A stretch of DNA of 64,000 nucleotides from a virus. Its lineage: Duplodnaviria > Caudoviricetes. The DNA is taken from IMG/VR virus record IMGVR_UViG_3300027974_001530; one strand, written 5' to 3'. The number at the start of each line of letters is the position of its first letter. Position 1 is the stretch's first letter. The notes beneath the pieces are model-generated. The model searched no databases, was not told the origin of the DNA, and saw nothing but the letters and a program-made list of their open reading frames with translations. This document shows positions 1 through 58,851 of the stretch, piece by piece. The position numbers and the translations under genes were made by a program.

Positions 1-228
1 ATCTTTTTGATCTCTTTCAATTAATACTTTTGATATCCAATTAAAATATTTTTTGGTTGGGGATGGGTCTAAATTATAAGCATCTTTTATAATATCATTA
101 TATGTGTCATTATATTTTTTTTCATAATATTTAAGTAAATCGTCAAGTTTACTTTCAGATAAAATGGTTTTATTTGATAAGAAATTTGTTAAACCATTAA
201 TTCTTTTTATCTCTTCTCTTAAATTCAT
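1..228 (-). CDS. 5' part of a hypothetical protein running off the left edge (MNLREEIKRINGL...DPSPTKKYFNW)
   Basis: Manual translation from ATG at 228, open to base 1; LxEEIxRI leader; TATTTAT motif at 233-239. Confidence 0.75.
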   Translation of the reverse strand, partial: MNLREEIKRINGLTNFLSNKTILSESKLDDLLKYYEKKYNDTYNDIIKDAYNLDPSPTKKYFNWISKVLIERDQKD

Positions 229-248
229 ATTAATAAATATCCCTTATA

Positions 249-641
249 CTAATAATTGTATTCATCATCATCATCGTCTTCTTCATCCCAAGTGATAGGC
301 TCATCATCGTCTTCAATAGTACCTAAATTACTACCTGATTCAACCCAAACTTCAAAAGGTGTTGAAAGTCCACAATTTTCAACATACTGAATAAAAAATT
401 CTTCCAAATATGAATCGTCTTTAAAAATTCTAGATATTTGGTCATAGATTTCTTTTTGTACCGATAATGATTTATCTGGTTTAACTATTAAAAATATAAC
501 AGTGTTTCCCGGAGTTGCAAGATATTCCATTCCATAACGTTTGTTTTCCCAAGGTCTTAAATCCAACCTTGAGAGGAATAGTTTTGCGATCTCTTGTTTA
601 TCTATAGTTTCTTTTAATATATGTCTAATATTTTCTTTCAT
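249..641 (-). CDS. hypothetical protein, MKENIRHILKE leader, acidic C-terminus
   Basis: ORF track; packed operon context. Confidence 0.8.
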   Translation of the reverse strand: MKENIRHILKETIDKQEIAKLFLSRLDLRPWENKRYGMEYLATPGNTVIFLIVKPDKSLSVQKEIYDQISRIFKDDSYLEEFFIQYVENCGLSTPFEVWVESGSNLGTIEDDDEPITWDEEDDDDDEYNY

Positions 642-645
642 AGTC

Positions 646-1143
646 TTACATATTTAATAATTCTGCACTAAACCCATTAAAAAAATTTAATTTAATTTCT
701 TTAAAATATCTTCTAAAATACTCATCCACAATTTCACTAACTTCATTTTTTATTTGCCAATATTCTTCAAAATCTTGCATTTCTTTACTTAAAAGATCAT
801 AAGTTTTATCTGTTGTCATAATTAAAGTTACCTTACCATATAAAACATCAAAATTAACTTCTAAAAAATCATCTTCATCATAATTATTAATTTCCCTAAC
901 TTTAAAAGTAAAATCATATCCACCAACTTGTATTTTAAATTCTAACTTTCTAACGTCAATTTCTTTACCTATAAACTCTTTTTTTAAAAGATCTATTTCT
1001 GACATTTTAACTATTTTAGAAACGTTTTTGATTCCTCCAACTTTTCTACAAACCATTAACAATCCTTCATTATTAATCATTTTTAAAAATTGATCACCTA
1101 AATTTAATTCTTCTTTTAAAATATTTCTTATTAGATTTTTCAT
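646..1143 (-). CDS. hypothetical protein, MKNLIRNILKEE leader
   Basis: ORF track; 4-bp overlap with the upstream gene. Confidence 0.8.
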   Translation of the reverse strand: MKNLIRNILKEELNLGDQFLKMINNEGLLMVCRKVGGIKNVSKIVKMSEIDLLKKEFIGKEIDVRKLEFKIQVGGYDFTFKVREINNYDEDDFLEVNFDVLYGKVTLIMTTDKTYDLLSKEMQDFEEYWQIKNEVSEIVDEYFRRYFKEIKLNFFNGFSAELLNM

Positions 1144-2009
1144 CCCTCTGTAATCTCTATATAATTGAAATGTTTATCTATATTAAAACCAAAGGATTCA
1201 ATAACATTATGAACAAACTGTTCAACCAATCCTACAATACCTTCTTTAAATTCATGATAAGAATAAAAATCATCAAATGGATTATTACCTGTTGAAAAAT
1301 TTATGTCTTGTCCTGATTCTGGATCATAAAATGTACCTTCTAATACAATAAAATTGGCGTCTAAATCTATATAATTTTTAGTTGGGTTTAATAGGTTTTC
1401 TTCATCCTCTTCACTAAATTCAACTTTATCAAATTTAATAGTTAGTTTACCATCAAAAAAATCACCCATGACTTGTATCATTTCTCTTTCAGTAAATGTA
1501 TTATCCATTAGGTATTTAGTTATTATTTCAGTTCTACTATTACCATCATAACCCATATATTCCATAAAAAATAGAATTATCTCATTTTTTTTTGAACCCA
1601 ATCCAAGTTTACTTATATCATATATGTTTGGTATTTTACCTTGTTTTTTTTCTTGGTCCCATTTATTGAAAAAGAATTTTTTAAGTTGGTCTATATTATT
1701 AGACTCCTGTATTTGATTTTTTCCTGTTTTTCTAAAATTATAATAATATGCCTTTAATAAAGGATCATAAATCTCAATCATATATACTATATACCCATCA
1801 ACTTCATTTGTTGGTAACTCATCTATATTGATATTGTATTTGTAAAAAATGTAATTTTCTAATGTTGCTTTAACTAATCTCCATTTAAACTCCTCAAGAG
1901 ATTCGGATTCATAAAAAATATAACTAGTTCCTTTCCTCATCATTTTTTCAAATTTATGATGATCAATTCTTCTCACAAAAAAAGGCGAAATATTATGATT
2001 GTTATCCAT
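1140..2009 (-). CDS. two-part hypothetical protein; second half paralogous to 8152..8718
   Basis: Start moved to MDNNHN (TATTTAT at 2017-2023); LKKFFFNKWDQEKKQGKIP vs LKKYFWDIWTNEVNSGKIP. Confidence 0.75.
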   Translation of the reverse strand: MDNNHNISPFFVRRIDHHKFEKMMRKGTSYIFYESESLEEFKWRLVKATLENYIFYKYNINIDELPTNEVDGYIVYMIEIYDPLLKAYYYNFRKTGKNQIQESNNIDQLKKFFFNKWDQEKKQGKIPNIYDISKLGLGSKKNEIILFFMEYMGYDGNSRTEIITKYLMDNTFTEREMIQVMGDFFDGKLTIKFDKVEFSEEDEENLLNPTKNYIDLDANFIVLEGTFYDPESGQDINFSTGNNPFDDFYSYHEFKEGIVGLVEQFVHNVIESFGFNIDKHFNYIEITEG

Positions 2010-2182: not shown

Positions 2183-2521
2183 ATGGATGACGTTACAAAA
2201 TATTTCCCAATATTTGATAAATTTTTAAATGAAATGTCGTATGGGTCTATATCCAATGTTGAGTTTATTAATGTAGAAAAGTTCTTTGACCGTACTGTTT
2301 TTATTGCCGAAACAAAGTTTGGTGAAGAGTTTGTGGTTAACCAAAGACGTATTAATTGTAAAATGGTTATTGGTGTTAATACATATAATTACCGTTGGTC
2401 TTACAATAAAAGTTTATTAGAAAAACAATTTGTTTCGATGTTTAAAAGACAATTTAAAAGTATAGACTTTGATTATTGTCAGGTCGTTATTGAATCTGCT
2501 AATATGATTTCAAGTTATTAA
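2183..2521 (+). CDS. hypothetical protein
   Basis: ORF track; fills the gap between minus-strand genes. Confidence 0.65.
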   Translation: MDDVTKYFPIFDKFLNEMSYGSISNVEFINVEKFFDRTVFIAETKFGEEFVVNQRRINCKMVIGVNTYNYRWSYNKSLLEKQFVSMFKRQFKSIDFDYCQVVIESANMISSY

Positions 2522-2972
2522 CAAATCTTTTTATTTCACGATTTGATATAAATTCCTCAGTGTCTTTTTTTACTTGTTCTTGATCACATTCGTTATTATC
2601 AAAGAACAAGTTAGGTATCCCATTACTTTCACCTTCTTTAATTGTTAGTTCTATAAAATCAGGAAGATATTTTACTGCTTCTGATTCATATTTTTCTATT
2701 TTATTAATTACGTCATCATAATCATGTACTCCTTTTGAATCGATATAATGGTCCCCTATTTTTATGTAAACGTGTATTAAATGATATTCAATAACTTCAT
2801 TTGTGTCCAAGACTAATTCTTCGGCAATAACCAAATAATAAGTTATATCTTTATTGGGTAATAGTTTTTGCAATTTTTCTTTAACATTCATTGCAAAATA
2901 ATGACAAAAACCAAACTGATAATCGTAAAAATTCCGATTTTCTCTTAAAATTTTTACAATTAAGTTTTTCAT
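2499..2972 (-). CDS. hypothetical protein, MKNLIVKILREN leader (CHYFA / HVY / DSKG motifs)
   Basis: ORF track. Confidence 0.8.
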   Translation of the reverse strand: MKNLIVKILRENRNFYDYQFGFCHYFAMNVKEKLQKLLPNKDITYYLVIAEELVLDTNEVIEYHLIHVYIKIGDHYIDSKGVHDYDDVINKIEKYESEAVKYLPDFIELTIKEGESNGIPNLFFDNNECDQEQVKKDTEEFISNREIKRFVNNLKSY

Positions 2973-3691
2973 AACTTGGAATCTATTTCTCTCCCTATTG
3001 TTTCGTATATTTTTAAATTACCGTGTGGATCTGAAACTTTACCAATTGGCGTATTTATAATTTTTGCTCCTTGGTTTTTGAATACGTTATAATACCTCTC
3101 AACATTTGATTCTTTAGTATCTTTGTTTCCTCCCCATCCCCAAGATCCCTGAACAACGTAAAAATTGGCCTTAGGGAAAGTTTTTTCTAAGTTGTCAAAC
3201 AACCCACTGATGTCGTCATTGGTGTTGAATCCTCCGTTGGTACCAATACTTATGATCACATTTTTAACGGTGTCATCCGTCTCATATTTTTTAACTGCAT
3301 TTTTTAACCAACTTACACCTATTCCACCTAACCATAAAGACTCTTCGCTACCTTTAGTTGATATTCTACTTGCCTTATCGGTCTTATTATCAATGTATGG
3401 AACCTGTGAGTCACCAATTATAATGTTTTTATTTTCTATTTTAGAGTTTTCAGACGAAAATGATTTCTTTTCTACTTCTTTTTTTATTTCTTTTTCAACC
3501 TCATCTTTGGTGGGTTCTTTTCCTTTAAACTTACTCATTATTTTTTTAAGAATATACCCCACCGCGGCACCTCCCAAAACATATTTACCTATTGTACCTA
3601 AAATACTAAATAAACCTTCATTAATTGGTTGATTTTTTAACTTGTTATTAACAAGTTTTTTAAATTGTTCTTCTGTTATTTTTATTTTCAT
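2969..3691 (-). CDS. SGNH/GDSL-like hydrolase with MKIKITEEQ leader
   Basis: IIIGDSQ (block I), VIISIGTNG (block III), DPH (block V-like). Confidence 0.65.
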   Translation of the reverse strand: MKIKITEEQFKKLVNNKLKNQPINEGLFSILGTIGKYVLGGAAVGYILKKIMSKFKGKEPTKDEVEKEIKKEVEKKSFSSENSKIENKNIIIGDSQVPYIDNKTDKASRISTKGSEESLWLGGIGVSWLKNAVKKYETDDTVKNVIISIGTNGGFNTNDDISGLFDNLEKTFPKANFYVVQGSWGWGGNKDTKESNVERYYNVFKNQGAKIINTPIGKVSDPHGNLKIYETIGREIDSKL

Positions 3692-3904: not shown

Positions 3905-6349
3905 TTAATATTTAATTCCGTCATAAATTAAAGAATTCTTCTCAACTGTTGTTGGTCCTGGTGTGTTCCTAAACATTGGTTCGTTATAATTAATTTGATT
4001 GGTGGTTTTATCTAACCTACCTTGAGGTGGAAAAATAATAATATTATTTTTTGAGTCAACTACTGCTGCCAATCCACTATTTAATGGTATACCTGGTGAC
4101 CTAAAATTAATAACTTTATTACCTGTTATGGGTGATACTTCATTTTTGAAAAAATTATAATAAGAGTCTTCGGATATTGATTTAACTGAAACAACGTCAA
4201 CTTTACCGTTTGGTGATTTAACAATCATATCAACACCAGCTTTATCTAAAGCATTACCTTTTCCTCCTCTCCATAAAACACTATACCCTAAATCCTCAAA
4301 TTTTTTTGCAATCAAATCTTCACCAAAATCTCCTCTTTTTGTATTCACAATAGAATTTTTTGTATATCTTTTTGTATTTTTAGAAATTTTTTCTTTCATT
4401 TTGGTTTTATTATTTTTCATGTAGTCCATAGTGTCTTTAAATAATTTTTCTATTTCTTTTTCATCTAAAAGTTGCATATCATTTATATTCTTTATTCGAT
4501 AATTACCTTCATTCAATTTATCTTGTAAAACATCTCTGAAAAATGTTTTTCTATCACCAGAATTTGTATTTAACATATTTATTGGTAACCATTCTTCATT
4601 TTCAGTAACATATTTATATTTTCCATTATCTAAGTTTTTAAAAAAGTTTTTTAATTCTGGAACTGATTCTATCGCATTTTTAATATCTTCCGTTACTCCG
4701 TTTGGAAAGGTATTGTCCACATCCGAAACTACTAATTTGACTTTTACACCATCTTCTAATTCGGATAAAATATCTTGGATTGTTTTTGTAAATTCTGTTC
4801 CATTATATCCTCGTAAATAATCACCGATTGATTTATTTAAATTATTTAATGAGGTTTCAGTTCTAAAAACATTATCAGTAAGATCAACTTCCTCACCTCG
4901 TAAATATTTTTCTACATCGTCAACTAAATTTTGTTGGAACTTTCCTAATTTTTTTTGGTTTTTTAAATATAGATAATTATTTGTTACTACTTCGCCTAAA
5001 TCCTCTAAACTTCTACTTTCACCGGGTAAATTTTTATTCATCATAGATAGATATTCTTCCATTGTACTTAATCCCATTTCAGATCTTTTAGCATTAAGTT
5101 TAGTTAAAAAATTAACATCATCTAATAATTTTTGTGGAGTTTCAAAAAAATAAAGTTTACCATCCATTTCTATTGGTCTAGGTATCCAATAATTACCATC
5201 AGAAGTAACACCCCCTTGTGATCCATATTTTTGTACTCCACTTGAAATTTCTGAAAAATTTAAATCTCCCGTTTTATTTACACTTATTCTGTCTTCCAAC
5301 ATTGCCATCCCTTTTTTAATTTTTAACTCTTGGTCAGGAAATTTATTTATAAAGTTTTCTTTATTTGTATCAAATAAGTTAAACATACTTTTTTGGAACT
5401 CTAAATCGTTGTCAGCATGTTGGGTTATTAACCAAATTGCTTCAATGTCTTCAATTTTATCTATACTTGATATAAAATTTTGTGGGTCGTCCCCCATTAT
5501 TTTTTTTAATTGTTCTTGATTTTTTATATCAACAGTTATGTCAAAAATTTCACTTTGTCTCATTGTTTGATCTAACTCAATCATTTTTGATAAATCTTGA
5601 CTATTTTTTTTAGGATTAACTATATCGTTTATTTGATTAACAACATTATTGTCTATTTTGTTTGCAAAATCTAATTCTTCATTTTTAATTTTTAATAAAT
5701 GTTCGTCAGGGCTTGTTTTTTTTAAAATATCATCACTTATTTTTTTTAAATAATCGTAAAGACCATCTGTTTTATTTTTATAATTAAGTTTTAAATTTTC
5801 TAAATTGACATTAAAAATGCCCCACAACTCGTCTTGACCTCCAAATATATCTGATTTCTCAACTCCACCTTTTTGTTCAATGTTAGATAACACATCAAAT
5901 ACCGTCAAATTTCCTCCTGTATTTGGTTTTGTGTTTTTTAAAAATTTTTGTACATCTGCGGATGTTTTTATAAGATTAGACCCTATTTTTGCACTTTTTT
6001 CTGATAATTCTTTTGCTAATAATCTTTCGGTTTTGGCTAAAACTGATTTTATTGTGTCTGTTCCTCCGTTCTTTAAAAAGTTTTTTAAACTTGCTATTGT
6101 TACCGCATCAGTTAAATTACCAGTAATTTTACCGTCCGAAGAATTAATTAAAGCCCTAAGTAAATTTTGATCCTCTTCTGATAAATTTTTAAAAAATACG
6201 GTTGCCTCATCATCTGATAATTTTAAAAGACTAATTAAAAGTTCTTGTAATCTTGGTCCTCCTGAAGAAGATAAAGATTCATTTAAAACCTCAGATTTAA
6301 TTCCCATTAACTCACGTATCCTACTTATTTCCGTTAAAAGTTTACTCAT
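3905..6349 (-). CDS. 814-aa multidomain protein: leader, DUF6624-like module, C-terminal PD-(D/E)XK-like nuclease
   Basis: AIWLITQHAD...LEDRI...QKYGSQ; RGDFGEDLIAKKF...GY...AGVDMIV...VSVK. Confidence 0.65.
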   Translation of the reverse strand: MSKLLTEISRIRELMGIKSEVLNESLSSSGGPRLQELLISLLKLSDDEATVFFKNLSEEDQNLLRALINSSDGKITGNLTDAVTIASLKNFLKNGGTDTIKSVLAKTERLLAKELSEKSAKIGSNLIKTSADVQKFLKNTKPNTGGNLTVFDVLSNIEQKGGVEKSDIFGGQDELWGIFNVNLENLKLNYKNKTDGLYDYLKKISDDILKKTSPDEHLLKIKNEELDFANKIDNNVVNQINDIVNPKKNSQDLSKMIELDQTMRQSEIFDITVDIKNQEQLKKIMGDDPQNFISSIDKIEDIEAIWLITQHADNDLEFQKSMFNLFDTNKENFINKFPDQELKIKKGMAMLEDRISVNKTGDLNFSEISSGVQKYGSQGGVTSDGNYWIPRPIEMDGKLYFFETPQKLLDDVNFLTKLNAKRSEMGLSTMEEYLSMMNKNLPGESRSLEDLGEVVTNNYLYLKNQKKLGKFQQNLVDDVEKYLRGEEVDLTDNVFRTETSLNNLNKSIGDYLRGYNGTEFTKTIQDILSELEDGVKVKLVVSDVDNTFPNGVTEDIKNAIESVPELKNFFKNLDNGKYKYVTENEEWLPINMLNTNSGDRKTFFRDVLQDKLNEGNYRIKNINDMQLLDEKEIEKLFKDTMDYMKNNKTKMKEKISKNTKRYTKNSIVNTKRGDFGEDLIAKKFEDLGYSVLWRGGKGNALDKAGVDMIVKSPNGKVDVVSVKSISEDSYYNFFKNEVSPITGNKVINFRSPGIPLNSGLAAVVDSKNNIIIFPPQGRLDKTTNQINYNEPMFRNTPGPTTVEKNSLIYDGIKY

Positions 6350-6536
6350 AACTTTCCCAAAATTTTAATAATTCTTTGTCTTTATATCTTTTTACTTTTT
6401 GATCCCAACCACATATATAACAGATAAAAGGATGATCATCATTTTTTTTCATTTTCCATGAATGATCACACTTTTTACAAACTATGTTATCTCCAAATAA
6501 TTTATCTGACTGTCTTTCTGTAATTATAATTTTCAT
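6342..6536 (-). CDS. small zinc-ribbon protein, MKIIITERQ leader
   Basis: CKKC...CYIC. Confidence 0.75.
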   Translation of the reverse strand: MKIIITERQSDKLFGDNIVCKKCDHSWKMKKNDDHPFICYICGWDQKVKRYKDKELLKFWESYE

Positions 6537-7033
6537 CTTTTTAAAGTGTTAATTATTTCTTCTTGGAAGAAGTTTTGAATTTCAGATTCACTGTCTTCAC
6601 TTTTTAATGTGTCTTGTAATCTTACGTCATCATCATTTAATACACTATAAAAATCATAGTCAGTTAAATACCCTCTTTTATCTGTAACAATAACTCCAAG
6701 AAACTCATCTCCATTGAATGTTATTTCTCCATAATATTCTACCTCATCACCTTTATTAATTTCTTCGGAGAATTCAAATCTAAATGGTCTACCTTTTAGA
6801 TTATATTTAAATCTCATTCCCTCTCTTTCATCAACCTTGTGAACATCTTCAATATCAAATATGAAATCTTCTGGATTACCTCCTCTTTCCGTAAAACTTT
6901 TAAAGGCTCTCAATATATCTTTTTCTGATGGTTTTAAATCTTCACCTTTATTCATTTTTGAATATAGGTCAAGTACCTGATCAAGATTTTCTTTTAGGTA
7001 ATTAAACTGTGATTCTGTAAGAATTATTTTCAT
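6533..7033 (-). CDS. hypothetical protein, MKIILTESQ leader
   Basis: ORF track. Confidence 0.8.
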   Translation of the reverse strand: MKIILTESQFNYLKENLDQVLDLYSKMNKGEDLKPSEKDILRAFKSFTERGGNPEDFIFDIEDVHKVDEREGMRFKYNLKGRPFRFEFSEEINKGDEVEYYGEITFNGDEFLGVIVTDKRGYLTDYDFYSVLNDDDVRLQDTLKSEDSESEIQNFFQEEIINTLKR

Positions 7034-8151: not shown

Positions 8152-8718
8152 ATGAAAGATCTTGTTAGGACTATACTTAGAGAAAATTCTCATTTAGAAA
8201 CGTTAAAAAAATATTTTTGGGATATTTGGACTAACGAAGTAAATTCAGGTAAAATACCTAAAATAGGTTACGTAGATATTCGTAGAAAAAACCTATCTAA
8301 ATATATTAAACAAATAGATAAGTGGTATAATGAATTTGTTGGTGGTAGTGATGAGTCTTTTAAATTATTTGATCGTTACATGACAAATTTAACTGTTACG
8401 GATGTTGACATGCGAAAAGCGAATCAACCTATTAACCCTGAAGACAAATTTGAAATTTTGATTACTCGTATTTTTAATAAATCTTATGACGAAAACATTG
8501 TAAAACAAACTTTAGATTTTGGTTTTATGATTAAAGATGCGACATTATTAACTGATGAAGGTAGATTGACTTGGGATGAACTTTGGGACGAAAAGTACGA
8601 TGATCTCTGGAATGATATTGAGAATTGGTTAAGAGGAGAACTTGAGGGTTATGTTCACACGATTCAATTAGATTTTGGTTTAGACTACCTATATATTGAT
8701 TCCCAATGGGATGATTAA
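8152..8718 (+). CDS. hypothetical protein, MKDLVRTILREN leader; paralog of the 1140..2009 C-half
   Basis: ORF track; TATTTAT at 8139-8145. Confidence 0.8.
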   Translation: MKDLVRTILRENSHLETLKKYFWDIWTNEVNSGKIPKIGYVDIRRKNLSKYIKQIDKWYNEFVGGSDESFKLFDRYMTNLTVTDVDMRKANQPINPEDKFEILITRIFNKSYDENIVKQTLDFGFMIKDATLLTDEGRLTWDELWDEKYDDLWNDIENWLRGELEGYVHTIQLDFGLDYLYIDSQWDD

Positions 8719-9033: not shown

Positions 9034-9402
9034 TTATTTTTGATCTGACAATATGAAATTTAAAAAATTTCTAATTGTTTTCATAAATTTTTGTCTTTCT
9101 GGGTTGTTGACATTATTTGAACCAAAAAACCAATCACCAACCATATCAGTTTCCTCAACTAACATTTCAACAATTTTAAGTTCCATTTGTTTTTTATTAT
9201 TAAAATTATTAAATCCAAATCCAGGAAATCCTTCAAATGAATATTCGGTAGATTTTAATGGTTCCATATCAACCCATTCTCTGCCAAACTCTCGTTCAAC
9301 AACTTTAATCCTTCTTAATAAAAAGTTTAATAATGAACGATCAATCTCCTCGTGTTGTGAGGAGATTTGATCCTTTTCATTTTCATTTATTATTATTTTC
9401 AT
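9034..9402 (-). CDS. hypothetical protein, MKIIINENE leader
   Basis: ORF track. Confidence 0.75.
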   Translation of the reverse strand: MKIIINENEKDQISSQHEEIDRSLLNFLLRRIKVVEREFGREWVDMEPLKSTEYSFEGFPGFGFNNFNNKKQMELKIVEMLVEETDMVGDWFFGSNNVNNPERQKFMKTIRNFLNFILSDQK

Positions 9403-19429: not shown

Positions 19430-19450
19430 ATCACAAAGATACAATTTTTT

Positions 19451-43747: not shown

Positions 43748-43828
43748 ATAACAATAAATATGAAACATTTACAAATAAGACAATAGACTGATATTTATGT
43801 TTAAATAAACATTAAAAAACAATTTGTT

Positions 43829-48179: not shown

Positions 48180-50114
48180 TTAGTCTTCGCTTTTACAACC
48201 TCTTTTCTTTTTAAGTTCCGGTGGGAAATTAACAATAAAGAAGTCTTCGGTTGGTATCATGTATTTAAATAACTCTTTAGGTAGTCTATCAACATCAATA
48301 CCAGAATCTAACACTGACACAAATGTCAGACAGTATAATGTTGATAATGATTTTGGTAAAGTTTTAAGTTCCTTATTCCCGGTAACGTTTAGGAATGATA
48401 ATACCCCACACTCACCAATAGATTCAGGTAAACTTTTTATTATGTTGTCAGCAACAAAGGTCTTTAAATTTTTAAATCTTGATATATTTGCTGGCACATC
48501 AAATGGTTTTACTTTATCTGATTTGTTTTCTAAGTTAATAAACTGAGTATCTTTAGGTAACATTTCGAATAAAGTTTCTAACCCAAACATCATAGCAAAT
48601 TTGGCAACAGAATCATTAGGGAAAGAAATAGGTAAATATGACAGGTCAAGATTTTTCTTAGCCAATTGTTTTGCATATGAATTAATAAGTGCCTCATGGT
48701 AAGGAGCCATCTCATCACTCATAATTAAGGAAACATCCGCTTCACTTAATTTGTCAATATCTGTTAACAACAACGATTTTCTTTTCTTTGAAAGGTAATA
48801 ATCCTTACTTTCTTTGTCACTTACTTTAAGCATTTCACCATTAATCTTACCATCCATACCAATGTATTTGTGTCTTAAGTATGGCGTAAAGTTTGCCCAT
48901 ATTTGATCACCATTACCAACAGTTGTTAAGTCAGGTGTTCTTAATTCTAACCATAATTCAACATTCTCTTCTGATCCTAATTCCTTTATCGCATCGTCTG
49001 TTGTTAAATTTTTTCTTTCAAAAGTCATCATCATACTTTGTTGTTCACTTGAGTATGGATTAGGTTTGAAGTATTTTTCTTTTCCGTTTAGGTTTGGTAT
49101 TTTTTGTACAATCTCACTAAAAGGCATAATCGTAGATCCTGCGAATCTACCTGAGTTAGTTCCATCCGCTAATCTAAATTGTGTGTTATTTCTCCAATCG
49201 TTATCAACTAAGATTACCACCGCATAATTAACATCACTTTCTTTTAAATTTTTATTAATTACATAGTATAAAGTTAAATTCTGTCTTAATCTATAATTGT
49301 AATAATAGTTTGAGGATCCCTCCCAAGATGTACACCATCTTCTATCAGGAGCGAATTTTTTTCTAATATTAATACACTTATGTTTTTGATCAGGTGCAAA
49401 TATTAATATAGTGTCATCCTCATATGTGACATCAACATCATTAACATCAACTTCAGGCATTTTATATTCATCCTGCATAGGTAAAACGTCAACAACATGT
49501 TCAAACTCAATAAAAGTCATCATACCCGCCGGTTTAGTATTAATAGGGACCAAAGGATAGTTTGCAATATATCTATCAACCCTATTAACGACTTGTTCTA
49601 TATTTTCTTGGGGATTTTCTTTAACCAACTTTTCAGTTAACTTTTCTTTCATAAAATTTTCAAAGTCTCTTCTTATTAAAGCAGAAAGTTCTATGGATGT
49701 CATAGTTAAAATGTCTTTTCTGAACTTCTTAGAATCCAAAGCTTTCATTTCAAAAAATTTCTTAATGTTTAACTTTGTTAATCTTTTATCTGCTCCGGCA
49801 TTTTTTTCCATGAAAGTCTTATAAATGTCATCAAAAGATTTTTTAGACTTTTGACTCTCAGACTTGGAGTTTACAACATCTTTTAGTTTTTGATAGTCAT
49901 AAGTAAAGATATCTCTCTCATTACCCTGTAAAGTACCTTTAAATCTTTCAAAATCAGATATTGTTTGTTTAATAACCTCAATCGAATCTTCTGTTTGGCC
50001 AGAAAATTTTCCAACAAGTTTTTTAACGGTAGATTCTGGATATTCAAGTAATAACCTATTTTTTTTATTCGTATTTTCTTTAACTATATTTGATAATAAT
50101 TTAACAAGTTCCAT
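48180..50114 (-). CDS. 644-aa protein: leader, 'WCT' domain, C-terminal leucine-rich repeats
   Basis: LLSNIVKE/LLLE leader; YEDDTILIFAP...RWCTS; IKSLPESIG..LSFLNV.GN..LKTLPKSL. Confidence 0.75.
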   Translation of the reverse strand: MELVKLLSNIVKENTNKKNRLLLEYPESTVKKLVGKFSGQTEDSIEVIKQTISDFERFKGTLQGNERDIFTYDYQKLKDVVNSKSESQKSKKSFDDIYKTFMEKNAGADKRLTKLNIKKFFEMKALDSKKFRKDILTMTSIELSALIRRDFENFMKEKLTEKLVKENPQENIEQVVNRVDRYIANYPLVPINTKPAGMMTFIEFEHVVDVLPMQDEYKMPEVDVNDVDVTYEDDTILIFAPDQKHKCINIRKKFAPDRRWCTSWEGSSNYYYNYRLRQNLTLYYVINKNLKESDVNYAVVILVDNDWRNNTQFRLADGTNSGRFAGSTIMPFSEIVQKIPNLNGKEKYFKPNPYSSEQQSMMMTFERKNLTTDDAIKELGSEENVELWLELRTPDLTTVGNGDQIWANFTPYLRHKYIGMDGKINGEMLKVSDKESKDYYLSKKRKSLLLTDIDKLSEADVSLIMSDEMAPYHEALINSYAKQLAKKNLDLSYLPISFPNDSVAKFAMMFGLETLFEMLPKDTQFINLENKSDKVKPFDVPANISRFKNLKTFVADNIIKSLPESIGECGVLSFLNVTGNKELKTLPKSLSTLYCLTFVSVLDSGIDVDRLPKELFKYMIPTEDFFIVNFPPELKKKRGCKSED

Positions 50115-51263: not shown

Positions 51264-51770
51264 ATGAAAACATTAAATGTTCTTAAAAATTTAATTTTAG
51301 AAAATAGAGGTAAGTACCATAGGTTATTTACTTCTCCTGAAGGAGTTAAATTTATTTCAACAACTCATCAAACAGAAGATAGAAAGAGTAATTTAAGTTA
51401 TGATGAAATAAAAGACATAATTCTAACTGCGATTAGTTCCAATATTAATATACATACACGAGTTGGTGTCCCTAACCTTATGATTTCAAAATTAATAAGA
51501 GACAAATATAGAAAAATACTTAATGAATTTTCATTAAACCCGGAAGAGAAAAAAATAAAATTTGTACACAAAAGAAATAATAATGAAGATGAGGAGGTTT
51601 TTGACTACATTGAATTTATCCTTGCTCGTGGCGAAGATAATACTTTTTTAGTGGTGTCAAGTACTTTTTCCGATAATGGTAATTATTTAAAACTTTACGG
51701 TAGAGATGTTGTCCAAGCAAGAAAAGTTATAATAGAAAAGTATTTTCATTTAAGAACCGTGTTATTATAA
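51264..51770 (+). CDS. hypothetical protein, MKTLNVLKNLILE leader
   Basis: ORF track; TATTTAT at 51252-51258. Confidence 0.8.
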   Translation: MKTLNVLKNLILENRGKYHRLFTSPEGVKFISTTHQTEDRKSNLSYDEIKDIILTAISSNINIHTRVGVPNLMISKLIRDKYRKILNEFSLNPEEKKIKFVHKRNNNEDEEVFDYIEFILARGEDNTFLVVSSTFSDNGNYLKLYGRDVVQARKVIIEKYFHLRTVLL

Positions 51771-51777
51771 TTAATTT

Positions 51778-51936
51778 ATGGAAAAGAAAGAAGCAACTAA
51801 AGTCACAGGATGTCGTAAATGTAATAAAGGACAAGAAAATTTACAAATGTTTTTAGTAATCTCAGGTGGATTATTATTTTCTTTGGCAATTTACGGAGCC
51901 GTTAGATTGGTTCAAGACATCGTATCTTGGTTTTAA
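51778..51936 (+). CDS. 52-aa CxxC + TM microprotein
   Basis: Manual translation MEKKEATKVTGCRKCNKG...LVISGGLLFSLAIYGAV. Confidence 0.6.
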   Translation: MEKKEATKVTGCRKCNKGQENLQMFLVISGGLLFSLAIYGAVRLVQDIVSWF

Positions 51937-52856
51937 TCCCTATCATATTTCAAATATGGTCTTATTAGCAGATCTCCTATAACAGTCTGTAATCTAAATC
52001 CTTTACTCTTAATTCTCAATGGTTTAGATGTATCCATATGTTTTGGGAAATTGACCGATATGTCCCCATCAGGGTGTGGAACTATAAAATTATCCTTGTT
52101 AATCTCTTCTAAATTAAAAAACTTATTATAAATTAAATGTTCCCCAAATTTTTCAAATCCACTCTCATTTGTTAAACTAATTTTTAATAATAAATCCCCG
52201 TATATTCCATTACCATAATCGCCCATATCATTTAGTCTCAACATTTGTCCATCATCAATACCATGTGGTACTTTAACTTCAACTGACTTTACCTCATCTT
52301 TTGTACCAGATCCATGACAAGCATAACAAGCATTCGTTATAATTGTTCCAAATCCTCGACAAGAGTCACATGGAGATTGTACCATTTGTACGAACATTCC
52401 ACTCCCCATTTGTTTCCAAGTAATCCCTTCTCCTTTACATGTTTCACAAACTTTTTTATCACCACCAGTACCATTACAAGGATCACACTTTTCTTTTCTT
52501 TTATAATTTAACGAAACTTTTTCATTAGTGAAACTTTTTAAAACATCCACACTTAAGTTGATTACTCTTGATGGTTTTCTTTGTTGTCTAAATTGATTAT
52601 TAAACATCTCATACATATCCGAAAATTGGTCGAACTTTGAATTGCCGAATGGGTTCTTTCTTTGGATGTCATATTCTCTACGTTTATTGTCATCCCCAAT
52701 CACATCATAAGCACCAGATATTTTCTTAAACAATTCTTCATCCCCGCCTTTATCTGGGTGGTTTTCCTTTGCTAAACTTCTATAAGCCTTCTTAATTTCG
52801 TCTTGTGTTGCCGTCTCCTCAACGCCTAATATGTTATAATAATTTTCAGAGTTCAT
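51933..52856 (-). CDS. dnaJ: DnaJ chaperone
   Basis: J-domain with HPDK; four CxxCxGxG repeats; VKVPHG C-terminal domain. Confidence 0.93.
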   Translation of the reverse strand: MNSENYYNILGVEETATQDEIKKAYRSLAKENHPDKGGDEELFKKISGAYDVIGDDNKRREYDIQRKNPFGNSKFDQFSDMYEMFNNQFRQQRKPSRVINLSVDVLKSFTNEKVSLNYKRKEKCDPCNGTGGDKKVCETCKGEGITWKQMGSGMFVQMVQSPCDSCRGFGTIITNACYACHGSGTKDEVKSVEVKVPHGIDDGQMLRLNDMGDYGNGIYGDLLLKISLTNESGFEKFGEHLIYNKFFNLEEINKDNFIVPHPDGDISVNFPKHMDTSKPLRIKSKGFRLQTVIGDLLIRPYLKYDRD

Positions 52857-52900: not shown

Positions 52901-53539
52901 ATGAAATATCTAATAGTCTTATTTAAAAATAAGAAAAGAAAAAAGATTTTAAATAAATTTAAAACATTAGAGAGGGCAAACAAATATTTTAACGATACCC
53001 TTAAAACAAGTAACAATGTTTTATTTTCAAAATCATTCGAGAATGGTAAACCTTGTAAGTATGAGATTGGTTTTTTAGAATCAGGTTCAACAGACTTTAA
53101 TTTATATTTTGTTAAAGACGAACTAGGAAGACAAATAAAAGTGGATATTGATGATCCTGATTACCGTCTTACTAAGATTGTTGATTATAATATTGAAGAG
53201 TTACTATATGATGTTGATGAAAAGAATAAAATATCTTTCGGTGGTTTTATTAAAAAGTATCTAACAAGGTCAGGAATAAAACTAATATCTAAACTTAATA
53301 ATAAAGTTGCAATACAAAATGATGATAAGGTAAATTTGGTTTCTTTAAAATCTATTGATGAATGCTCAAGATTTATAGATGTTCTTGAGGATTATTTAAT
53401 AAAAAATGGTAGGTTGGATTGTATCTTGGTTAAGGATACCTCTAAACAACAAAAAAAATACCTTTATACTATTTTAGAGTCTAAAGGTATTGATAAATCA
53501 TTTCTTTATAGAAGGTTTACTACGTTTACTAGGGAATAG
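52901..53539 (+). CDS. hypothetical protein
   Basis: ORF track. Confidence 0.75.
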   Translation: MKYLIVLFKNKKRKKILNKFKTLERANKYFNDTLKTSNNVLFSKSFENGKPCKYEIGFLESGSTDFNLYFVKDELGRQIKVDIDDPDYRLTKIVDYNIEELLYDVDEKNKISFGGFIKKYLTRSGIKLISKLNNKVAIQNDDKVNLVSLKSIDECSRFIDVLEDYLIKNGRLDCILVKDTSKQQKKYLYTILESKGIDKSFLYRRFTTFTRE

Positions 53540-53827
53540 TCTTTCCCAAAAACTTATTTTTTTCTTTTCAATAACTTCTTCTTCAATAACTTCTTCCTCG
53601 TAAATTTTATTATTGATAAAAACAATTTCTGTCCCTGAAATTTCAACTTTAAATCTTAATCTATTACTATCAACTTTTCTAAAATTTTTTTGTACTTCTT
53701 TAAAATCTTCATTGTCTAATTCATACACCAAAATTGTTTTTCCTGAAGGAAAAATATTATTAGCGGCATCAGTAACAATAACTAATTTTTCTAAGATATC
53801 ATTAATATTTTTTTCAGTTTCTCCCAT
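53498..53827 (-). CDS. hypothetical protein
   Basis: ORF track. Confidence 0.7.
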   Translation of the reverse strand: MGETEKNINDILEKLVIVTDAANNIFPSGKTILVYELDNEDFKEVQKNFRKVDSNRLRFKVEISGTEIVFINNKIYEEEVIEEEVIEKKKISFWERLFPSKRSKPSIKK

Positions 53828-53991
53828 AAAGTAAGTTTCTTAGGTTTTTTTGGTAATATATCCTCTTTTTTTAATTCTTTGATCTTATTGATAAAGTTAT
53901 TTTTTTCAAAATTTAAATCTTTAGAGTCTCTTTCTATTTCATTTTTTAGCCAATCAATCTCAGCTTCCAATTTGCTTTTCTTCTTCATCAT
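53791..53991 (-). CDS. small coiled-coil protein
   Basis: ORF track. Confidence 0.65.
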   Translation of the reverse strand: MMKKKSKLEAEIDWLKNEIERDSKDLNFEKNNFINKIKELKKEDILPKKPKKLTLWEKLKKILMIS

Positions 53992-54376
53992 CTTCTAACT
54001 CAATTTTAGGTGATTTTATTTCAAATTTCAATCCTTGTAGGTCATTTAATTTTTGTTTTTCAAAAATATGTTTTAGTTCGTCTATCTTTTGTTGAAATAA
54101 TTTATCTTTGTCTTCTCTCTCCTTATTGTAAGCAATTATATTTTTTATATTAGTGATCTGATTATCAATTAATTGTTCATTAAATTCACTAACAAAAGAA
54201 AACAACCTTACGTTAGGGGTTTGGGTTTTACTTTCTAGTACGCTTTTTTCATCGACAAATTTTTTAGGTAATTTCCAAGTGTCTGGAAATTCTATGTCAA
54301 ATGATAGATAATTTTTTAATTTTCTTACCGATTGTAAGTACGGAAATAAGATATTAAATTCTTGGAACATGCTCAT
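53960..54376 (-). CDS. hypothetical protein
   Basis: ORF track. Confidence 0.75.
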   Translation of the reverse strand: MSMFQEFNILFPYLQSVRKLKNYLSFDIEFPDTWKLPKKFVDEKSVLESKTQTPNVRLFSFVSEFNEQLIDNQITNIKNIIAYNKEREDKDKLFQQKIDELKHIFEKQKLNDLQGLKFEIKSPKIELEDDEEEKQIGS

Positions 54377-55310: not shown

Positions 55311-56753
55311 TTATTGTGTTTTTCTACCGTATGAAATTAAATTTCCTATTCTTTCTAAATCCTCGTTAATTTTTTTAGACTTTTTACTACTTCTTTTTTC
55401 CCCACTTTCAACTTTATTTAAAAGATCAGAAGCATCATCACTTCCTGGTCTATCTTTAACAATAGGTTGTGGAGATTTATTATAAGCCTTTTTCTTAATT
55501 TGACCTAACAAATTCTTTTCTCTAATTTCATTTCTTCTTTTGTTTGTTGGTGTTTCTACCGCATTTGCCCATTTAGGGTTGTTTCCTGTTCTTGACGATC
55601 CAAGAACATTATCTTCAACCCACTCTTTATTAGGTGCGAATTCATCGTATTCAATATTTTCTAATGCTGCTGCAGTAAAGTTTTCAACGTATTCTGCAAC
55701 ACTATCTGAAGGAACATACGCCATCTTATCCATTTCTTCTATCTCTCCATTACCCATTGGGAAATGTTTAGGTTCCATAGTAAATGACTCTTTAGATCCA
55801 TCTTTCATGTAATCTTTCATTTTTTTAGAAACTTCTTTGTAGTAATCTTGATTTTCTTTTCCTGATTTATCAAAAGATCTTTCATACTCAGAATATCCTC
55901 TAGTTTTTTTAGATGGTTTTAATTTCTCTTCGGCCAAAGTCTCAATTAAATTAACAACTTGTTCTTCACTTAATCTTACGGTTCTACCTAACTTATCGTT
56001 GAATATTTCGTACTCATACATTTTTGTTCTGAAGGTTTTTTCTCCGTCATTCCAAAAATCAGATGTTTTTTTCGCATTATCAAACATGTCTTCTTCAAGT
56101 TTTGGTTCGTACTGGAAGTCGATACCTTGAGAAAAACCTTCTCCTCCACACCATTCACATTCAGTGTCATTAAATTCGTCGTATCCTGTTCCATTACAAT
56201 GTGAACACTCCTCTTCATGATCACCATAATAAGGGTTAAACATACTTAAATCTTTATAATCATCACCTTTAAATTCTAAAAGATCAGACTCTTTCATTCC
56301 ACATTCAGAACATTCTCCCTCCATTTTCAATCCACCACACTCACAAACATCACTTTCATTAACCTCAAATTCGTAGATTGTTTCTTCTTCCATTGGCCAT
56401 TTACCTCCACATTCCATACATTCTCCACGACCTTCTTTTGTTTCTTTTTTGTTTCTTAACATTTTGAAGTCCTCTCTATCGATTCTACCATTTTTGTTTT
56501 TGTCTATATTTCTTTGTTTACCATATAGTTTTTCGCTAAGGTCTTTTTCCATACTTTCTTTTGTTTCTTTTTTGTTTCTTAACATTTTAAAATCTTCACT
56601 ATCAATTCTACCGTTTTTGTTTTTGTCTATATTTCTTTGTTTACCATATAGTCTTTCATTAAGATCTTCTTCCACATAATCAAAAGAATTTCCGGCTTTA
56701 TTGAATTTCATTGTATCGTATTTTTCGGATATTTTTCCTCTATAGTTTTTCAT
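55311..56753 (-). CDS. modular protein with duplicated EF-hand-like unit, Cys-rich zinc ribbons and many xxE sites
   Basis: DKNKNGRIDxEDF twice; CMECG, CSECG, CSHCNGTG..CEWCGGEG; TATTTAT at 56767-56773. Confidence 0.75.
   Translation of the reverse strand: MKNYRGKISEKYDTMKFNKAGNSFDYVEEDLNERLYGKQRNIDKNKNGRIDSEDFKMLRNKKETKESMEKDLSEKLYGKQRNIDKNKNGRIDREDFKMLRNKKETKEGRGECMECGGKWPMEEETIYEFEVNESDVCECGGLKMEGECSECGMKESDLLEFKGDDYKDLSMFNPYYGDHEEECSHCNGTGYDEFNDTECEWCGGEGFSQGIDFQYEPKLEEDMFDNAKKTSDFWNDGEKTFRTKMYEYEIFNDKLGRTVRLSEEQVVNLIETLAEEKLKPSKKTRGYSEYERSFDKSGKENQDYYKEVSKKMKDYMKDGSKESFTMEPKHFPMGNGEIEEMDKMAYVPSDSVAEYVENFTAAALENIEYDEFAPNKEWVEDNVLGSSRTGNNPKWANAVETPTNKRRNEIREKNLLGQIKKKAYNKSPQPIVKDRPGSDDASDLLNKVESGEKRSSKKSKKINEDLERIGNLISYGRKTQ
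56434..56658. repeat. 123-bp-period in-frame imperfect duplication
   Basis: CCATATAGT at 56521 and 56644; 41-aa period LYGKQRNIDKNKNGRID. Confidence 0.85.
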
Positions 56754-56778
56754 TTCTTTTTTTATTATAAATATATGA

Positions 56779-57504
56779 TTATCCAAGTTTATTCATTTCA
56801 CTTAAGATAATATCTTTAATAATATCCTCATGAATTTCATACTTATCACTTATTCTTTTTATTACATTTTCTACCGATTGATTCTCAAAAATGTTAAGAG
56901 CTTTGATATCACCTTGGTTACAATATGGGAAACGTTTACATTTTTTTTTAACCTGAACAAATTTTCCTCCAGGTAATTGTGTTTTGGCTCTACCTCTCCA
57001 ATTTTTCTTACTCATAGATTTAGCCCAAGCTCCTGTTGTTTCATATGATCCGGAAGATGAAGATGAGGTTGCCTCAGTTGCCTCAATTTTTTTCGGTTCT
57101 TCACCTGAAAATAAAGGTTCAAAGGATCCTGATCCTCCTGTTGCGGTCGCCTCTTTGGTTTCTGAATTATTTTTTTTAGTAGTAACTACCATTTCTAAAA
57201 AATCCTTTAATTCTTCAGGATCTTTTAAATATTTTTTCATTTCCTGTTTTATCTTGTTTTTTGATAACTTTTTGTTTTTAATAAGTTTGTACATTTCAAT
57301 TATATCCTTCTTATCTTTTAAAAAATCCATATAATGATTTTTTGTATTTTCTCCGTTATCTTCTTCTGTTTGTATTGTTGATAATAAATCGTTTTTTGAT
57401 TGGATGGCAGAGGTAGGATCTAATTGACCTCCACCCTCATAACCTCTAGCATTTGCAATTACTTCGGAAAAACTTTTTTGTATTGCCCCTTTCCAATCTT
57501 CCAT
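56779..57504 (-). CDS. hypothetical protein with repeated EAT-Ser/Gly segments
   Basis: TKEATATGGSGSF, ATEATSSSSSGSY; KKCKRFPYC. Confidence 0.75.
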   Translation of the reverse strand: MEDWKGAIQKSFSEVIANARGYEGGGQLDPTSAIQSKNDLLSTIQTEEDNGENTKNHYMDFLKDKKDIIEMYKLIKNKKLSKNKIKQEMKKYLKDPEELKDFLEMVVTTKKNNSETKEATATGGSGSFEPLFSGEEPKKIEATEATSSSSSGSYETTGAWAKSMSKKNWRGRAKTQLPGGKFVQVKKKCKRFPYCNQGDIKALNIFENQSVENVIKRISDKYEIHEDIIKDIILSEMNKLG

Positions 57505-57506
57505 TT

Positions 57507-57923
57507 TTATTTAAAAATTAAAATATATGTTAATGCTCCAACTATTGATCCTGAAACTATTTCAATAATTGTGTTTTTTGTTTTTATTTTTTTAATATCT
57601 TTTCTTAACTCTTTGTTTTCAGTATCTAATAGTGTTACCTTTTCTTCGGTATCTTTTATTATTATTTCACTATTTTTATCTTTTTGTTCCAAAAATTTAA
57701 CAACACCCTCTTCTTTAATTACTTTGGTTTCTAATTCTTTTATTTCTTTTTGATCTAAAATAGATTGTTTTTTTAATTTATCTAAGTCATTAAGATCTAA
57801 TAGTATTTGTTTCCCCACATTAACAGGAAAACATATTGTAGTGGTATCTTCTTTTTGTGGTTTAGTTTGACTAAAACCTATAAAAGACACCATAAAAAAT
57901 GTTAATAAAATAATTTTTTTCAT
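57507..57923 (-). CDS. secreted coiled-coil protein with C-terminal TM (spanin-like candidate)
   Basis: N-terminal signal sequence, coiled coil, C-terminal hydrophobic helix. Confidence 0.5.
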   Translation of the reverse strand: MKKIILLTFFMVSFIGFSQTKPQKEDTTTICFPVNVGKQILLDLNDLDKLKKQSILDQKEIKELETKVIKEEGVVKFLEQKDKNSEIIIKDTEEKVTLLDTENKELRKDIKKIKTKNTIIEIVSGSIVGALTYILIFK

Positions 57924-57925
57924 AA

Positions 57926-58279
57926 TTAATATTTGTATCTTTGTTTGAACGAACTGTCAATTTCTTTTTTGTCCATTCCTTTTATTTGATCTTTCTTTTG
58001 TTCGTAATAATTATTTACGGTTGTTTTTTCACTTTTTATTTTTAATATATTTTCATCAATCTTTTCAATATCTTTTTTATATGATGTGATAGAATCATTT
58101 AATTGTAGTTGTAAGTTTTTAACTTTACTAATGTTTTGATCTAATTGATCTAACTTATAATTTAATAATTCAGACCTATCTTCAATTGGTTTAAATATCT
58201 TAATTAGAATTATTGTTAATAATAATGTTAATACTACTAATAAGATTTCTTTATAATATTTAACTAAAAAATTTTTCAT
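57926..58279 (-). CDS. N-terminal TM + coiled-coil protein (i-spanin-like candidate)
   Basis: Hydrophobic residues ~11-29, then heptad pattern; near the amidase gene. Confidence 0.5.
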   Translation of the reverse strand: MKNFLVKYYKEILLVVLTLLLTIILIKIFKPIEDRSELLNYKLDQLDQNISKVKNLQLQLNDSITSYKKDIEKIDENILKIKSEKTTVNNYYEQKKDQIKGMDKKEIDSSFKQRYKY

Positions 58280-58851
58280 TTTTCTTTTGGTGTTTTTTTT
58301 CTGTTAGCGATAACTTTTGACCATTTTGCCTTAAACTTTTCGTAATAAGTTCTTAACTTAGTGGTAAATTCAACAAATTCATCATTAATGTTTATCATGT
58401 CTCCGTTTATGTAAACCCCATTTGTTTCACCAATAGAGAAGAAAAATTCAATATCTAAGTCTTGTATTTTACCTGACCATTCTACGTTATTTGGGTATAA
58501 ATTAAGAGTATTAAAATCAACTAATTCAGATACTTCACCAACAAACTCGTCCATTGATTCCTGAAATGCGTTTTTATCGTCTGTTGTTAATTGTAATTCT
58601 TTTTTATCTTTACCATTTATTGTCATAAGTCCTCCTGAAATCCTATAGGTTGTTTTCTTTTCAAACTTTCTATCTTCAGGAGTTTCTTCATTATCTTCGT
58701 CGTTGGGTTCTGCGGTTTCATATTCATCATCAGATTCCTTAATTATACCGTAATACTTATTAAGTATGTCTGTTGATTCCTTCACCATATCTTTGTTAAG
58801 AAGATTTCTTGATGCTGACAATAATTTTTTTATTTCTTCCTGTCTATTCAT
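58276..58851 (-). CDS. hypothetical protein, MNRQEEIKKLL leader
   Basis: ORF track. Confidence 0.75.
   Translation of the reverse strand: MNRQEEIKKLLSASRNLLNKDMVKESTDILNKYYGIIKESDDEYETAEPNDEDNEETPEDRKFEKKTTYRISGGLMTINGKDKKELQLTTDDKNAFQESMDEFVGEVSELVDFNTLNLYPNNVEWSGKIQDLDIEFFFSIGETNGVYINGDMININDEFVEFTTKLRTYYEKFKAKWSKVIANRKKTPKEK

Follow-up and report, generated by a model that had tools for sequence, protein, structure and literature searches.

Why should some fourteen genes on one viral DNA, coding for unrelated proteins, all begin with one of a few short peptides that closely resemble each other? This question is raised by a stretch of 64,000 nucleotides from a virus (Duplodnaviria; Caudoviricetes; IMG/VR record IMGVR_UViG_3300027974_001530), referred to below as the window, i.e., the whole stretch at its full length. 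A preliminary description listed 17 gene starts with related N-terminal leaders and proposed that these form a modular tag, which loads an arsenal of enzymes into the phage head and is removed by a prohead protease that cuts after I/L-x-E (Ile or Leu, any residue, Glu).

The leaders, called tags from here on, are real and N-terminal. They are conserved at the protein level, restricted to viruses, modular and interchangeable, and they go together with late-type promoters and with genomes bearing an S77-family prohead protease. Regarding their function, we give slightly better than even chances to the reading that they are propeptides like the capsid targeting sequences (CTS) of phage T4, which would bring proteins to the capsid and be removed by proteolysis after I/L-x-E.

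A small set of leaders on unrelated proteins

The preliminary description distinguished three leader types, A, B and C. These do recur, and comparison with the complete, 304-kb genome of a related phage (G003) resolves them into combinations of simpler units. The alpha module has the form (K)-I-I-(I/L)-(T/N)-E-x-Q, the beta module the form (L/I)-(I/V)-(R/K)-x-(I/V)-(L/I)-(K/R/N)-E, and a third motif reads E-I-x-R-I-(K/R)-x-(L/M)-M-G. As a sequence pattern, the alpha and beta modules each terminate in I/L-x-Glu, and all core leaders end in the same way. An alpha module followed by a beta module makes up a long, 22-residue tag termed T1 (MKKVIRLTESDLTRIVKRVINE), with window copies at 43747 and, as a variant, at 36096. 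Starts of the beta type, MKxLI(R/V)xIL(K/R)E, are found at 641, 1143, 2972 and 8152, with a looser one at 51264; those of the alpha type, MK(I/Y)I(I/L)(T/N)E-x-Q, at 3691, 6536, 7033, 9402 and 24967; and those of the R-I-x-x-L-M-G type at 6349 and, more loosely, at 228.

All 17 coordinates are starts of open reading frames (ORFs), and the peptides had been quoted correctly. Fourteen of them belong to tag families that recur in the window and in the independent relative genome, two (40326 and 50114) are weak members with only a minimal I/L/V-x-E start, conserved among orthologues, and one (58851) has no recurrent tag, and the count for the window is thus closer to 14–16 than to the 20 or so first proposed. 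The genes are given below, with the putative cut marked by an arrow; TATTTAT is a promoter-like motif to which we return in the next section.

1–228, minus strand: tagged gene, open at its 3' end at the window edge; loose R-I-x-x-L-M-G tag MNLREEIKRINGL (nt 190–228), resembling the G003 leader MNLQENIHRIKSMMGL; TATTTAT 11 nt upstream
249–641, minus strand: tagged gene, 130 aa; beta tag MKENIRHILKE (nt 609–641)
646–1143, minus strand: tagged gene, 165 aa; beta tag MKNLIRNILKE (nt 1111–1143)
2499–2972, minus strand: tagged gene, 157 aa; beta tag MKNLIVKILRE (nt 2940–2972)
2969–3691, minus strand: tagged gene, 240 aa, SGNH; alpha tag MKIKITE-x-Q up to a conserved P-I-N-E↓G (nt 3617–3691); TATTTAT 18 nt upstream
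3905–6349, minus strand: tagged gene, 814 aa; leader MSKLLTEISRIRELMG...VLNE (nt 6278–6349), with L-T-E, R-I-R-E-L-M-G and L-N-E in this order
6342–6536, minus strand: tagged gene, 64 aa, Cys-rich; alpha tag MKIIITE-R-Q (nt 6516–6536), kept in the G003 orthologue
6533–7033, minus strand: tagged gene, 166 aa; alpha tag MKIILTESQ, then FNYLKE (nt 6989–7033), kept in the G003 orthologue
8152–8718, plus strand: tagged gene, 188 aa; beta tag MKDLVRTILRE (nt 8152–8184); TATTTAT 13 nt upstream
9034–9402, minus strand: tagged gene, 122 aa; alpha tag MKIIINE (nt 9382–9402)
24365–24967, minus strand: tagged gene, 200 aa; alpha tag MKYILNESQ (nt 24947–24967); TATTTAT 11 nt upstream
34840–36096, minus strand: tagged gene, 418 aa, conserved in the clade; leader MTKIIITERQ...LLSE↓AVGVP (nt 36034–36096); TATTTAT 11 nt upstream
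42236–43747, minus strand: tagged gene, 503 aa; long alpha plus beta tag MKKKIRLTENKLVSIILKLIKE (nt 43682–43747); TATTTAT 13 nt upstream
51264–51770, plus strand: tagged gene, 168 aa; loose beta tag MKTLNVLKNLILE (nt 51264–51302); TATTTAT 12 nt upstream
48180–50114, minus strand: possible tagged gene, weak member, 644 aa; MELVKLLSNIVKE, kept in the G003 orthologue; TATTTAT 22 nt upstream
38947–40326, minus strand: possible minimal tag, weak member, 459 aa, DHH-like; MKRLIKE↓SG, orthologue ...LILE↓SG; TATTTAT 12 nt upstream
58276–58851, minus strand: listed earlier, no recurrent tag; N-terminus common only to its own orthologue

For the 503-aa protein, the start of the longest ORF, at 43768, is probably wrong, and the ATG at 43747 is preferred because the promoter-like motif falls inside the 43768 extension and the tag begins at 43747.

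Two familiar classes of leader were ruled out. Sec, Tat and lipoprotein signal peptides do not fit because the tags are charged and amphipathic and lack a hydrophobic core; true signal peptides do occur in the window, for instance at the N-termini at 57923 and 21254, and they differ from the tags. Double-glycine leaders of the bacteriocin type do not fit either, as no GG follows the leaders and no exporter was seen in scans of the window.

The bodies behind the tags are unrelated, as had been claimed: no tagged pair in the window matches by BLASTP at E < 1e-3. The motifs themselves might have arisen by chance from an AT-rich proteome, since the window has a GC content of 29% and Lys, Ile and Glu are abundant (most of its genes lie on the minus strand), and the weakest members (40326, 50114 and 58851) could indeed be of this kind. 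For the core set, however, chance is refuted, and as a general explanation we give it practically no credence. A type B pattern (MKIIITE-x-Q type) matches 6 of 112 gene starts vs none of 19,292 internal positions; of the 1,142 ATGs, in whichever frame, with 15 or more open codons behind them, it matches the six true starts only, and after shuffling of the N-terminal residues it finds a mean of 0.0005 matches. A type A pattern (LI(R)xIL(K/R)E type) matches five N-termini vs one internal position, with a mean of 0.16 in shuffles. Patterns built from G003 alone match 11 of 113 window N-termini vs none of 87 control segments (residues 41–70). Thus, the excess over what a K/I/E-rich composition yields, which the preliminary description had made a point of doubt, holds for the core set, and the same tags recur in independent genomes and in the 8,226 protein clusters described below.

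Relatives, exchange of tags and a promoter-like motif

With the 418-aa protein (34840–36096) as query, 58 loci were found in IMG/VR, some of them on contigs of 257–304 kb. Four near-complete relatives (G003–G006) each carry a PF03420 gp21-type prohead protease and a PF07068 gp23-type capsid protein. The capsid protein of the clade is 38–40% identical to those of Flavobacterium phage immuto and of a Microcystis phage, and about 25% to those of T4-like coliphages; immuto (38%) is the nearest cultured relative found. By these sequence marks, namely the protease, the capsid protein and the T4 order of the head genes in the relatives, the window is assigned to an uncultured clade of T4-like jumbo phages with genomes of about 300 kb. 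The host is probably a member of the Bacteroidota, as judged from a type IX secretion system (T9SS) domain and from signal peptides of Flavobacterium style.

Recognised genes of the window include those for a thymidylate synthase, an RNA ligase, a glutamine-synthetase-like protein with Gln-synt_N and Gln-synt_C domains (16741–17943, minus strand), a UvrC-like nuclease with GIY-YIG and RNase H domains (18164–19444, minus strand), a sigma-70-family protein and a T9SS-type secreted adhesin-like protein. The last of these (31934–34750, minus strand; 938 aa) has a signal peptide, an Ig-like CHU_C-associated domain and a T9SS C-terminal sorting domain; it is mostly missing from the near-identical fragment G001, and its flanks are more AT-rich.

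The scale of tagging is best seen in G003, where 60 of 373 genes are tagged vs 1 of 339 control segments. By their bodies, the tagged genes form 53 families (median length, 144 aa). All of these genes are found in the record's first 120 kb, a region immediately upstream of the head module. Among 1.84 billion representative proteins (clusters at 50% identity), a profile of the long tag matches 8,226 at E <= 0.001; in the best 150 matches, the tag is N-terminal in 143, and about 10% have a second, internal copy. The exact 12-residue tag pattern occurs in at least 119 stretches of IMG/VR, with no match in 596 Gb of cellular genomes. A tblastn search of cultured phage genomes with the 418-aa protein and a 25-aa tag gave no match, no cultured carrier with a studied proteome came to light, and full-text searches of the literature found no earlier account of the tag motifs, or of capsid targeting sequences in metagenomes.

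Tags are exchanged between bodies. The gene at 9034–9402 has an alpha tag and its G003 orthologue, with a 50% identical body, a beta tag, and single body families within G003 carry mixed tag types. Complete second or third tags, in frame and each beginning with Met, are found inside G003 141536–142969 (L204) and 53511–54218 (L199), and in P0001, P0007, P0022 and P0081. Judged by their sequences, ORFs with internal tags look like fused tag-body units or polyproteins.

Many of these genes have in common the motif TATTTAT. In G003, it stands 11–13 or 21–22 nt before the ATG of 81 genes (chance 0.016 per gene), among them 25 of the 55 genes that were scored as tagged. The 81 also include the genes for the protease, the scaffold-position and the portal-adjacent proteins, for a head-tail adaptor-like protein and for a virion structural/tail-spike protein of 1,513 aa, as well as numerous very large genes from the half of the genome that holds the structural genes. 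In the window, it precedes 7 of the 14 core tagged genes vs 9 of 96 others (Fisher p = 7e-4), and it lies 11–13 or 18–26 nt upstream of the starts at 228, 3691, 7724, 8090, 8152, 9932, 10642, 19927, 24967, 34750, 36096, 38616, 40326, 43747, 44036, 50114, 51264 and 60573, preceding none of the recognisable genes for enzymes of nucleotide or nucleic-acid metabolism. The other seven tagged genes are downstream in same-strand runs, mostly directly behind a motif-bearing gene, and we assume that those starting at 641 and 1143 are expressed by read-through from 3691. TATTTAT, which differs from the TATAAATA of T4, is likely to be the late promoter of the clade.

Two neighbouring genes may be mentioned here. 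The sigma-70-family protein (62186–63013, minus strand) has regions 1.2, 2 and 4 and may direct a phage-specific class of promoters. A 177-aa protein (9399–9932, minus strand), with TATTTAT upstream, contains a long Asp/Glu run and is similar to T4 gp67, the acidic prohead core protein, in composition only.

A spacing of 11–13 nt between motif and ATG means that the transcripts would be nearly leaderless, and this brings up the view that the tags are conserved as DNA or RNA, either as a promoter-plus-start cassette for near-leaderless late mRNAs or as a recombination linker, with the peptide as a by-product. The short distance to many ATGs, the very AT-rich first codons and the recombinogenic look of the tagged-gene arrays would suit this view. 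However, the Ile, Leu and Arg codons vary synonymously among tag copies while the residues are kept, so conservation acts at the protein level, and the upstream DNA is unconserved save for the short promoter-like motif. In addition, the peptide is kept in promoterless tags and in in-frame internal copies, structural genes with a TATTTAT promoter do without it, and an amphipathic pattern conserved along 22 residues over 8,226 clusters is a protein-level signature. We consider conservation at the level of DNA or RNA very improbable.

Head maturation, putative cleavage and proposed cargo

The expected gp21-like protease is present in the relatives: S77 (PF03420) occurs in all seven tag-bearing relatives that are at least 90% complete, and the tag-bearing IMG/VR records without it are fragments, 41–71% complete. 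The complete 269-kb tag-bearing phage G009 (IMGVR_UViG_3300032296_003307) has two separate PF03420 genes (31291–31773 and 233494–233940). In G003, the head genes stand in the order of T4, namely terminase, portal, two small genes, protease, a 466-aa acidic scaffold-position protein and capsid protein. In the capsid alignment, the cut of T4 gp23, FLTE↓A, aligns with (F/H)LINE↓A in G003–G006, and I-N-E is the form in which many tags end. The scaffold-position protein starts with ...VIAE↓NAQGILAS, similar to ...LIAE↓AQKIDAS in T4 gp22, and the portal-adjacent 238-aa protein starts with MKFGLLKSQIENILIE; in both G003 and G006, two genes just past the capsid gene begin with beta tags.

A further link concerns the third tag type. 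G003 has eight copies of the pattern R[IM][KRQ]x[LM][MI]G vs 0.67 expected: five are N-terminal tags, three stand at an extreme C-terminus and none is internal. One of these C-termini is the conserved end of the scaffold-position protein, ...PQFLRMKDLMGKLK, which suggests that tags of this type may copy the scaffold's own docking element. The suggested tie between tag and scaffold C-terminus offers a docking mechanism that can be tested. The R-(I/M)-K-x-L-M-G loci are G003 L203:16865–18265, L186, L188, L190 and L185, along with window 3905–6349. Two proteins besides the scaffold-position protein end in the motif, and in the window a 491-aa EF-hand/dockerin-like protein (55311–56786) ends in the related ...EDLERIGNLISYG....

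The leaders themselves carry marks that would be expected of cleavage sites. In an alignment of 17 long tags, M1, E9 and E22 are the sole invariant residues. Two positions ahead of these Glu stand L7 and I/L20, respectively, and conservation collapses immediately beyond E22. Families selected by their bodies agree: in the 418-aa family, about half of the members lack the middle part of the leader, and (L/I)-x-E↓A-(V/L)-G-V-P is present in 24 of 24; in the SGNH family, (I/L)-N-E directly precedes the body in 16 of 16 alpha-tagged members. AlphaFold2 models of both proteins, made with body-selected alignments, give the leaders a pLDDT of about 37–57 and keep them separate from the bodies, which are modelled with confidence from past the I/L-x-E site; the SGNH model has a disordered stretch near P-I-N-E↓G. 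A complex prediction that paired the S77 protease of G003 with residues 1–40 of a tagged protein scored 0.00 and, being run without controls, counts neither way.

The tags could also be docking or oligomerisation helices that are retained uncleaved and recruit late proteins to the scaffold, the tail, the baseplate or another assembly, I/L-x-E being part of a heptad-like helix. The hydrophobic residues at 5, 12, 15/16 and 19/20 of the long tag fit a coiled-coil stripe, conservation runs on past the first Glu, as in ITE-x-Q, and both the internal copies in about 10% of long-tag proteins and the R-I-K-L-M-G motifs at C-termini, where removal would be unusual for a propeptide, suit a retained element. 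However, M1 aside, the two Glu are the only invariant positions of the leader and conservation stops after the last of them. The leader-terminal I/L-x-E stays invariant in the body-selected families while the rest of the helix is deletable, the predicted maturation site of the capsid protein is also I-N-E, and processing as in polyproteins would explain internal copies equally well. On this evidence, we regard retained helices as unlikely, yet as worth keeping in mind.

Regarding the cargo, the SGNH hydrolase named in the preliminary description is borne out by its fold. Behind the leader, the protein at 2969–3691 has a Gly/Ala-rich hydrophobic helix and then an SGNH/GDSL hydrolase domain (GDS 93–95, GTN 150–152, H223), in which G93-D94-S95, G150-T151-N152 and H223 are invariant. 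It has no Pfam match, and Foldseek relates the body to GDSL esterases, to sialate/carbohydrate O-acetyl esterases and to peptidoglycan O-acetyl-transferase domains, with E down to 6e-5. For the 418-aa protein, the HExxH motif is invariant (H152, E153, H156), but a Foldseek search against the PDB gave no match, and we therefore do not call it a peptidase. The DHH, leucine-rich repeat (LRR) and zinc-finger domains proposed for other cargo correspond to sub-threshold Pfam matches only. More generally, only 2 of 56 tagged G003 proteins match any Pfam family, so most of the cargo consists of small ORFan proteins, with few recognisable enzymes. Scans with Pfam and PHROGs gave hardly any matches, either for the tagged proteins or for the head-module neighbours, and a search of the ESM Atlas returned viral hypothetical clusters only.

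The SGNH family also bears on another reading, namely that the tags serve a late function outside the virion, either in targeting to the membrane or periplasm near lysis or entry, or as a signal recognised by a phage chaperone or degradation system. Elsewhere, the SGNH domain is preceded by alpha, beta, long or R-I-K-L-M-G tags, or by a plain membrane anchor, and the tag stands where most homologues have a transmembrane signal-anchor. The domain is also found fused to Amidase_2, NlpC/P60, M23, CHAP or peptidoglycan (PG)-binding domains, and at one locus of a related phage, tags are found on amidase, lysozyme/PG-binding, PAP2 and DUF6576 proteins alike, so that cell-wall enzymes of several kinds are among the tagged relatives. 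Some tagged bodies have hydrophobic segments, and the window codes for a DnaJ-like protein (51933–52856, by a reading of its N-terminus alone). On the other side, the tags are hydrophilic or amphipathic, unlike signal peptides, and the tagged bodies are mostly small soluble ORFans. Cell-wall enzymes are also known among the ejected internal proteins of other phages, such as gp16 of T7, and this reading would leave unexplained why the tags are tied to the head module, to the capsid cut site and to the scaffold C-terminus. A role outside the virion thus seems to us rather improbable.

The sequence-level tests that were run fit the proposal of a modular tag cut after I/L-x-E: the protease in relatives, the I-N-E↓A of the capsid protein, the invariant Glu, the promoter and the tag swaps. 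In the propeptide reading, tagged genes would be transcribed late, from a TATTTAT-type promoter common to head and tail genes. Through its amphipathic N-terminal helix, newly made cargo would dock on the prohead's scaffolding core, the gp21-type (S77) protease would cut after the Glu of each I/L-x-E module, and cleavage would free the mature protein inside the head, beside the DNA.

Several observations weigh against this proposal. I/L-x-E occurs 1.6 times per 100 residues in this K/I/E-rich proteome, so its mere presence proves little, and it is only mildly raised in the scaffold-position protein (2.6 vs 1.8 expected), as also in the core-position protein (3.8 vs 2.3 expected). In the 418-aa family, most members keep ITE-x-Q (T7 and E8 nearly invariant, Q10 invariant); the Gln is conserved beyond the first putative cut, and the alpha module must therefore be more than a bare cleavage site. 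The window itself has no prohead protease gene, and the association of S77 with tags was examined inside one broad clade, in tag-bearing genomes only. The genome of immuto has no exact match to the single alpha-tag DNA pattern that was searched, other tag types not having been looked for. Finally, the hydrophobic, membrane-like segments of some tagged proteins could favour a membrane destination, and 60 cargo species per genome far exceed the number in T4.

Delivery of the cargo into the host, the injected arsenal of the preliminary description, and a role against host defences are plausible by analogy with T4 IPI* and with the ejected cell-wall enzymes of other phages. A wider proposal can be put forward tentatively, and we rate it somewhat below an even chance: a large clade of aquatic T4-like jumbo phages may use a combinatorial N-terminal address code, built from two I/L-x-Glu modules and a motif copied from the scaffold C-terminus, to load at least 50 rapidly exchanged small proteins and cell-wall enzymes per genome into the capsid, which the protease would release. 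If such a code exists, packaged or ejected proteins would be a major unrecognised share (about 15%) of the coding capacity of jumbo phages, with more than 8,000 protein clusters. If the propeptide reading is correct, a simple rule based on sequence would tell which proteins are packaged, and possibly injected, by uncultured jumbo phages in their thousands, and a large block of ORFan genes would gain a role. It would also point to candidate effectors of anti-defence and cell entry, including tagged peptidoglycan-active enzymes, and the tags could be used as natural packaging handles for phage engineering outside the T4 model.

Comparison with known head-targeting propeptides

The closest known system is the CTS of T4, carried by IPI, IPII and IPIII, with propeptides also on gp24, Alt, gp67 and gp68. 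N-terminal CTS propeptides of 10–19 residues direct IPI–III into the scaffolding core, and gp21 cuts them off. Residues 4 and 7 are important for targeting and residues 8 and 10 for processing, which is blocked by Asp at position 10 (PMC9026906, PMC3012670). Fusion to the CTS packages foreign proteins, and the authors of that work remarked that, in evolution, the CTS may serve as a device to load a variety of proteins (PMC9026906, PMC3012670). The tags of the window and its relatives are similar in several respects. They are N-terminal, sit on unrelated proteins and have 7–25 residues; they follow the layout M-K-x-hydrophobic...hydrophobic-x-Glu with a terminal I/L-x-E (T4 ipII and ipIII both begin with MKTYQEFIAE, and gp24 with MAKINELLRE↓S); the clade has a gp21-family protease and a T4-like order of the head genes; and the cargo proteins are small, diverse and fast-evolving.

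The differences are also clear. The likeness to MKTYQEFIAE is one of layout alone, with no detectable homology. Several interchangeable tag types are built here from two modules, often with two Glu sites, and dozens of genes are tagged (60 in G003) vs a handful in T4. One tag type is common to the C-terminus of the scaffold-position protein, about 10% of the long-tag proteins have internal copies, and the tags are known from sequence alone.

A second comparison can be made with the propeptides of phiKZ-like phages (phiKZ, 201phi2-1 and SPN3US). The protease family cuts after Glu, at L/I-x-E in T4, where gp23 is cut after residue 65, and at A/S/G-x-E in phiKZ-like phages (PMC5694885). As in the tagged phages, many head-internal proteins are involved and the Glu-cutting protease is homologous. 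Propeptides with multiple cuts, N-termini conserved among diverged paralogues and some transmembrane cargo, such as a processed head ejection protein of SPN3US with a predicted transmembrane helix, are further points in common (PMC5694885). However, the residue two before the Glu is A/S/G there and I/L here, as in T4; the phiKZ-like propeptides mostly exceed 100 residues and are not short portable tags like the leaders of 7–25 aa found here; and the clade described here is T4-like in its head gene order.

With respect to both systems, what is new is the tagged share of about 15% of a genome's genes, the combinatorial design from two modules, the scaffold-like third tag, the internal copies and the breadth across metagenomes. 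If the propeptide reading holds, the CTS principle, which in T4 serves a handful of proteins, would have grown in these phages into a modular system.

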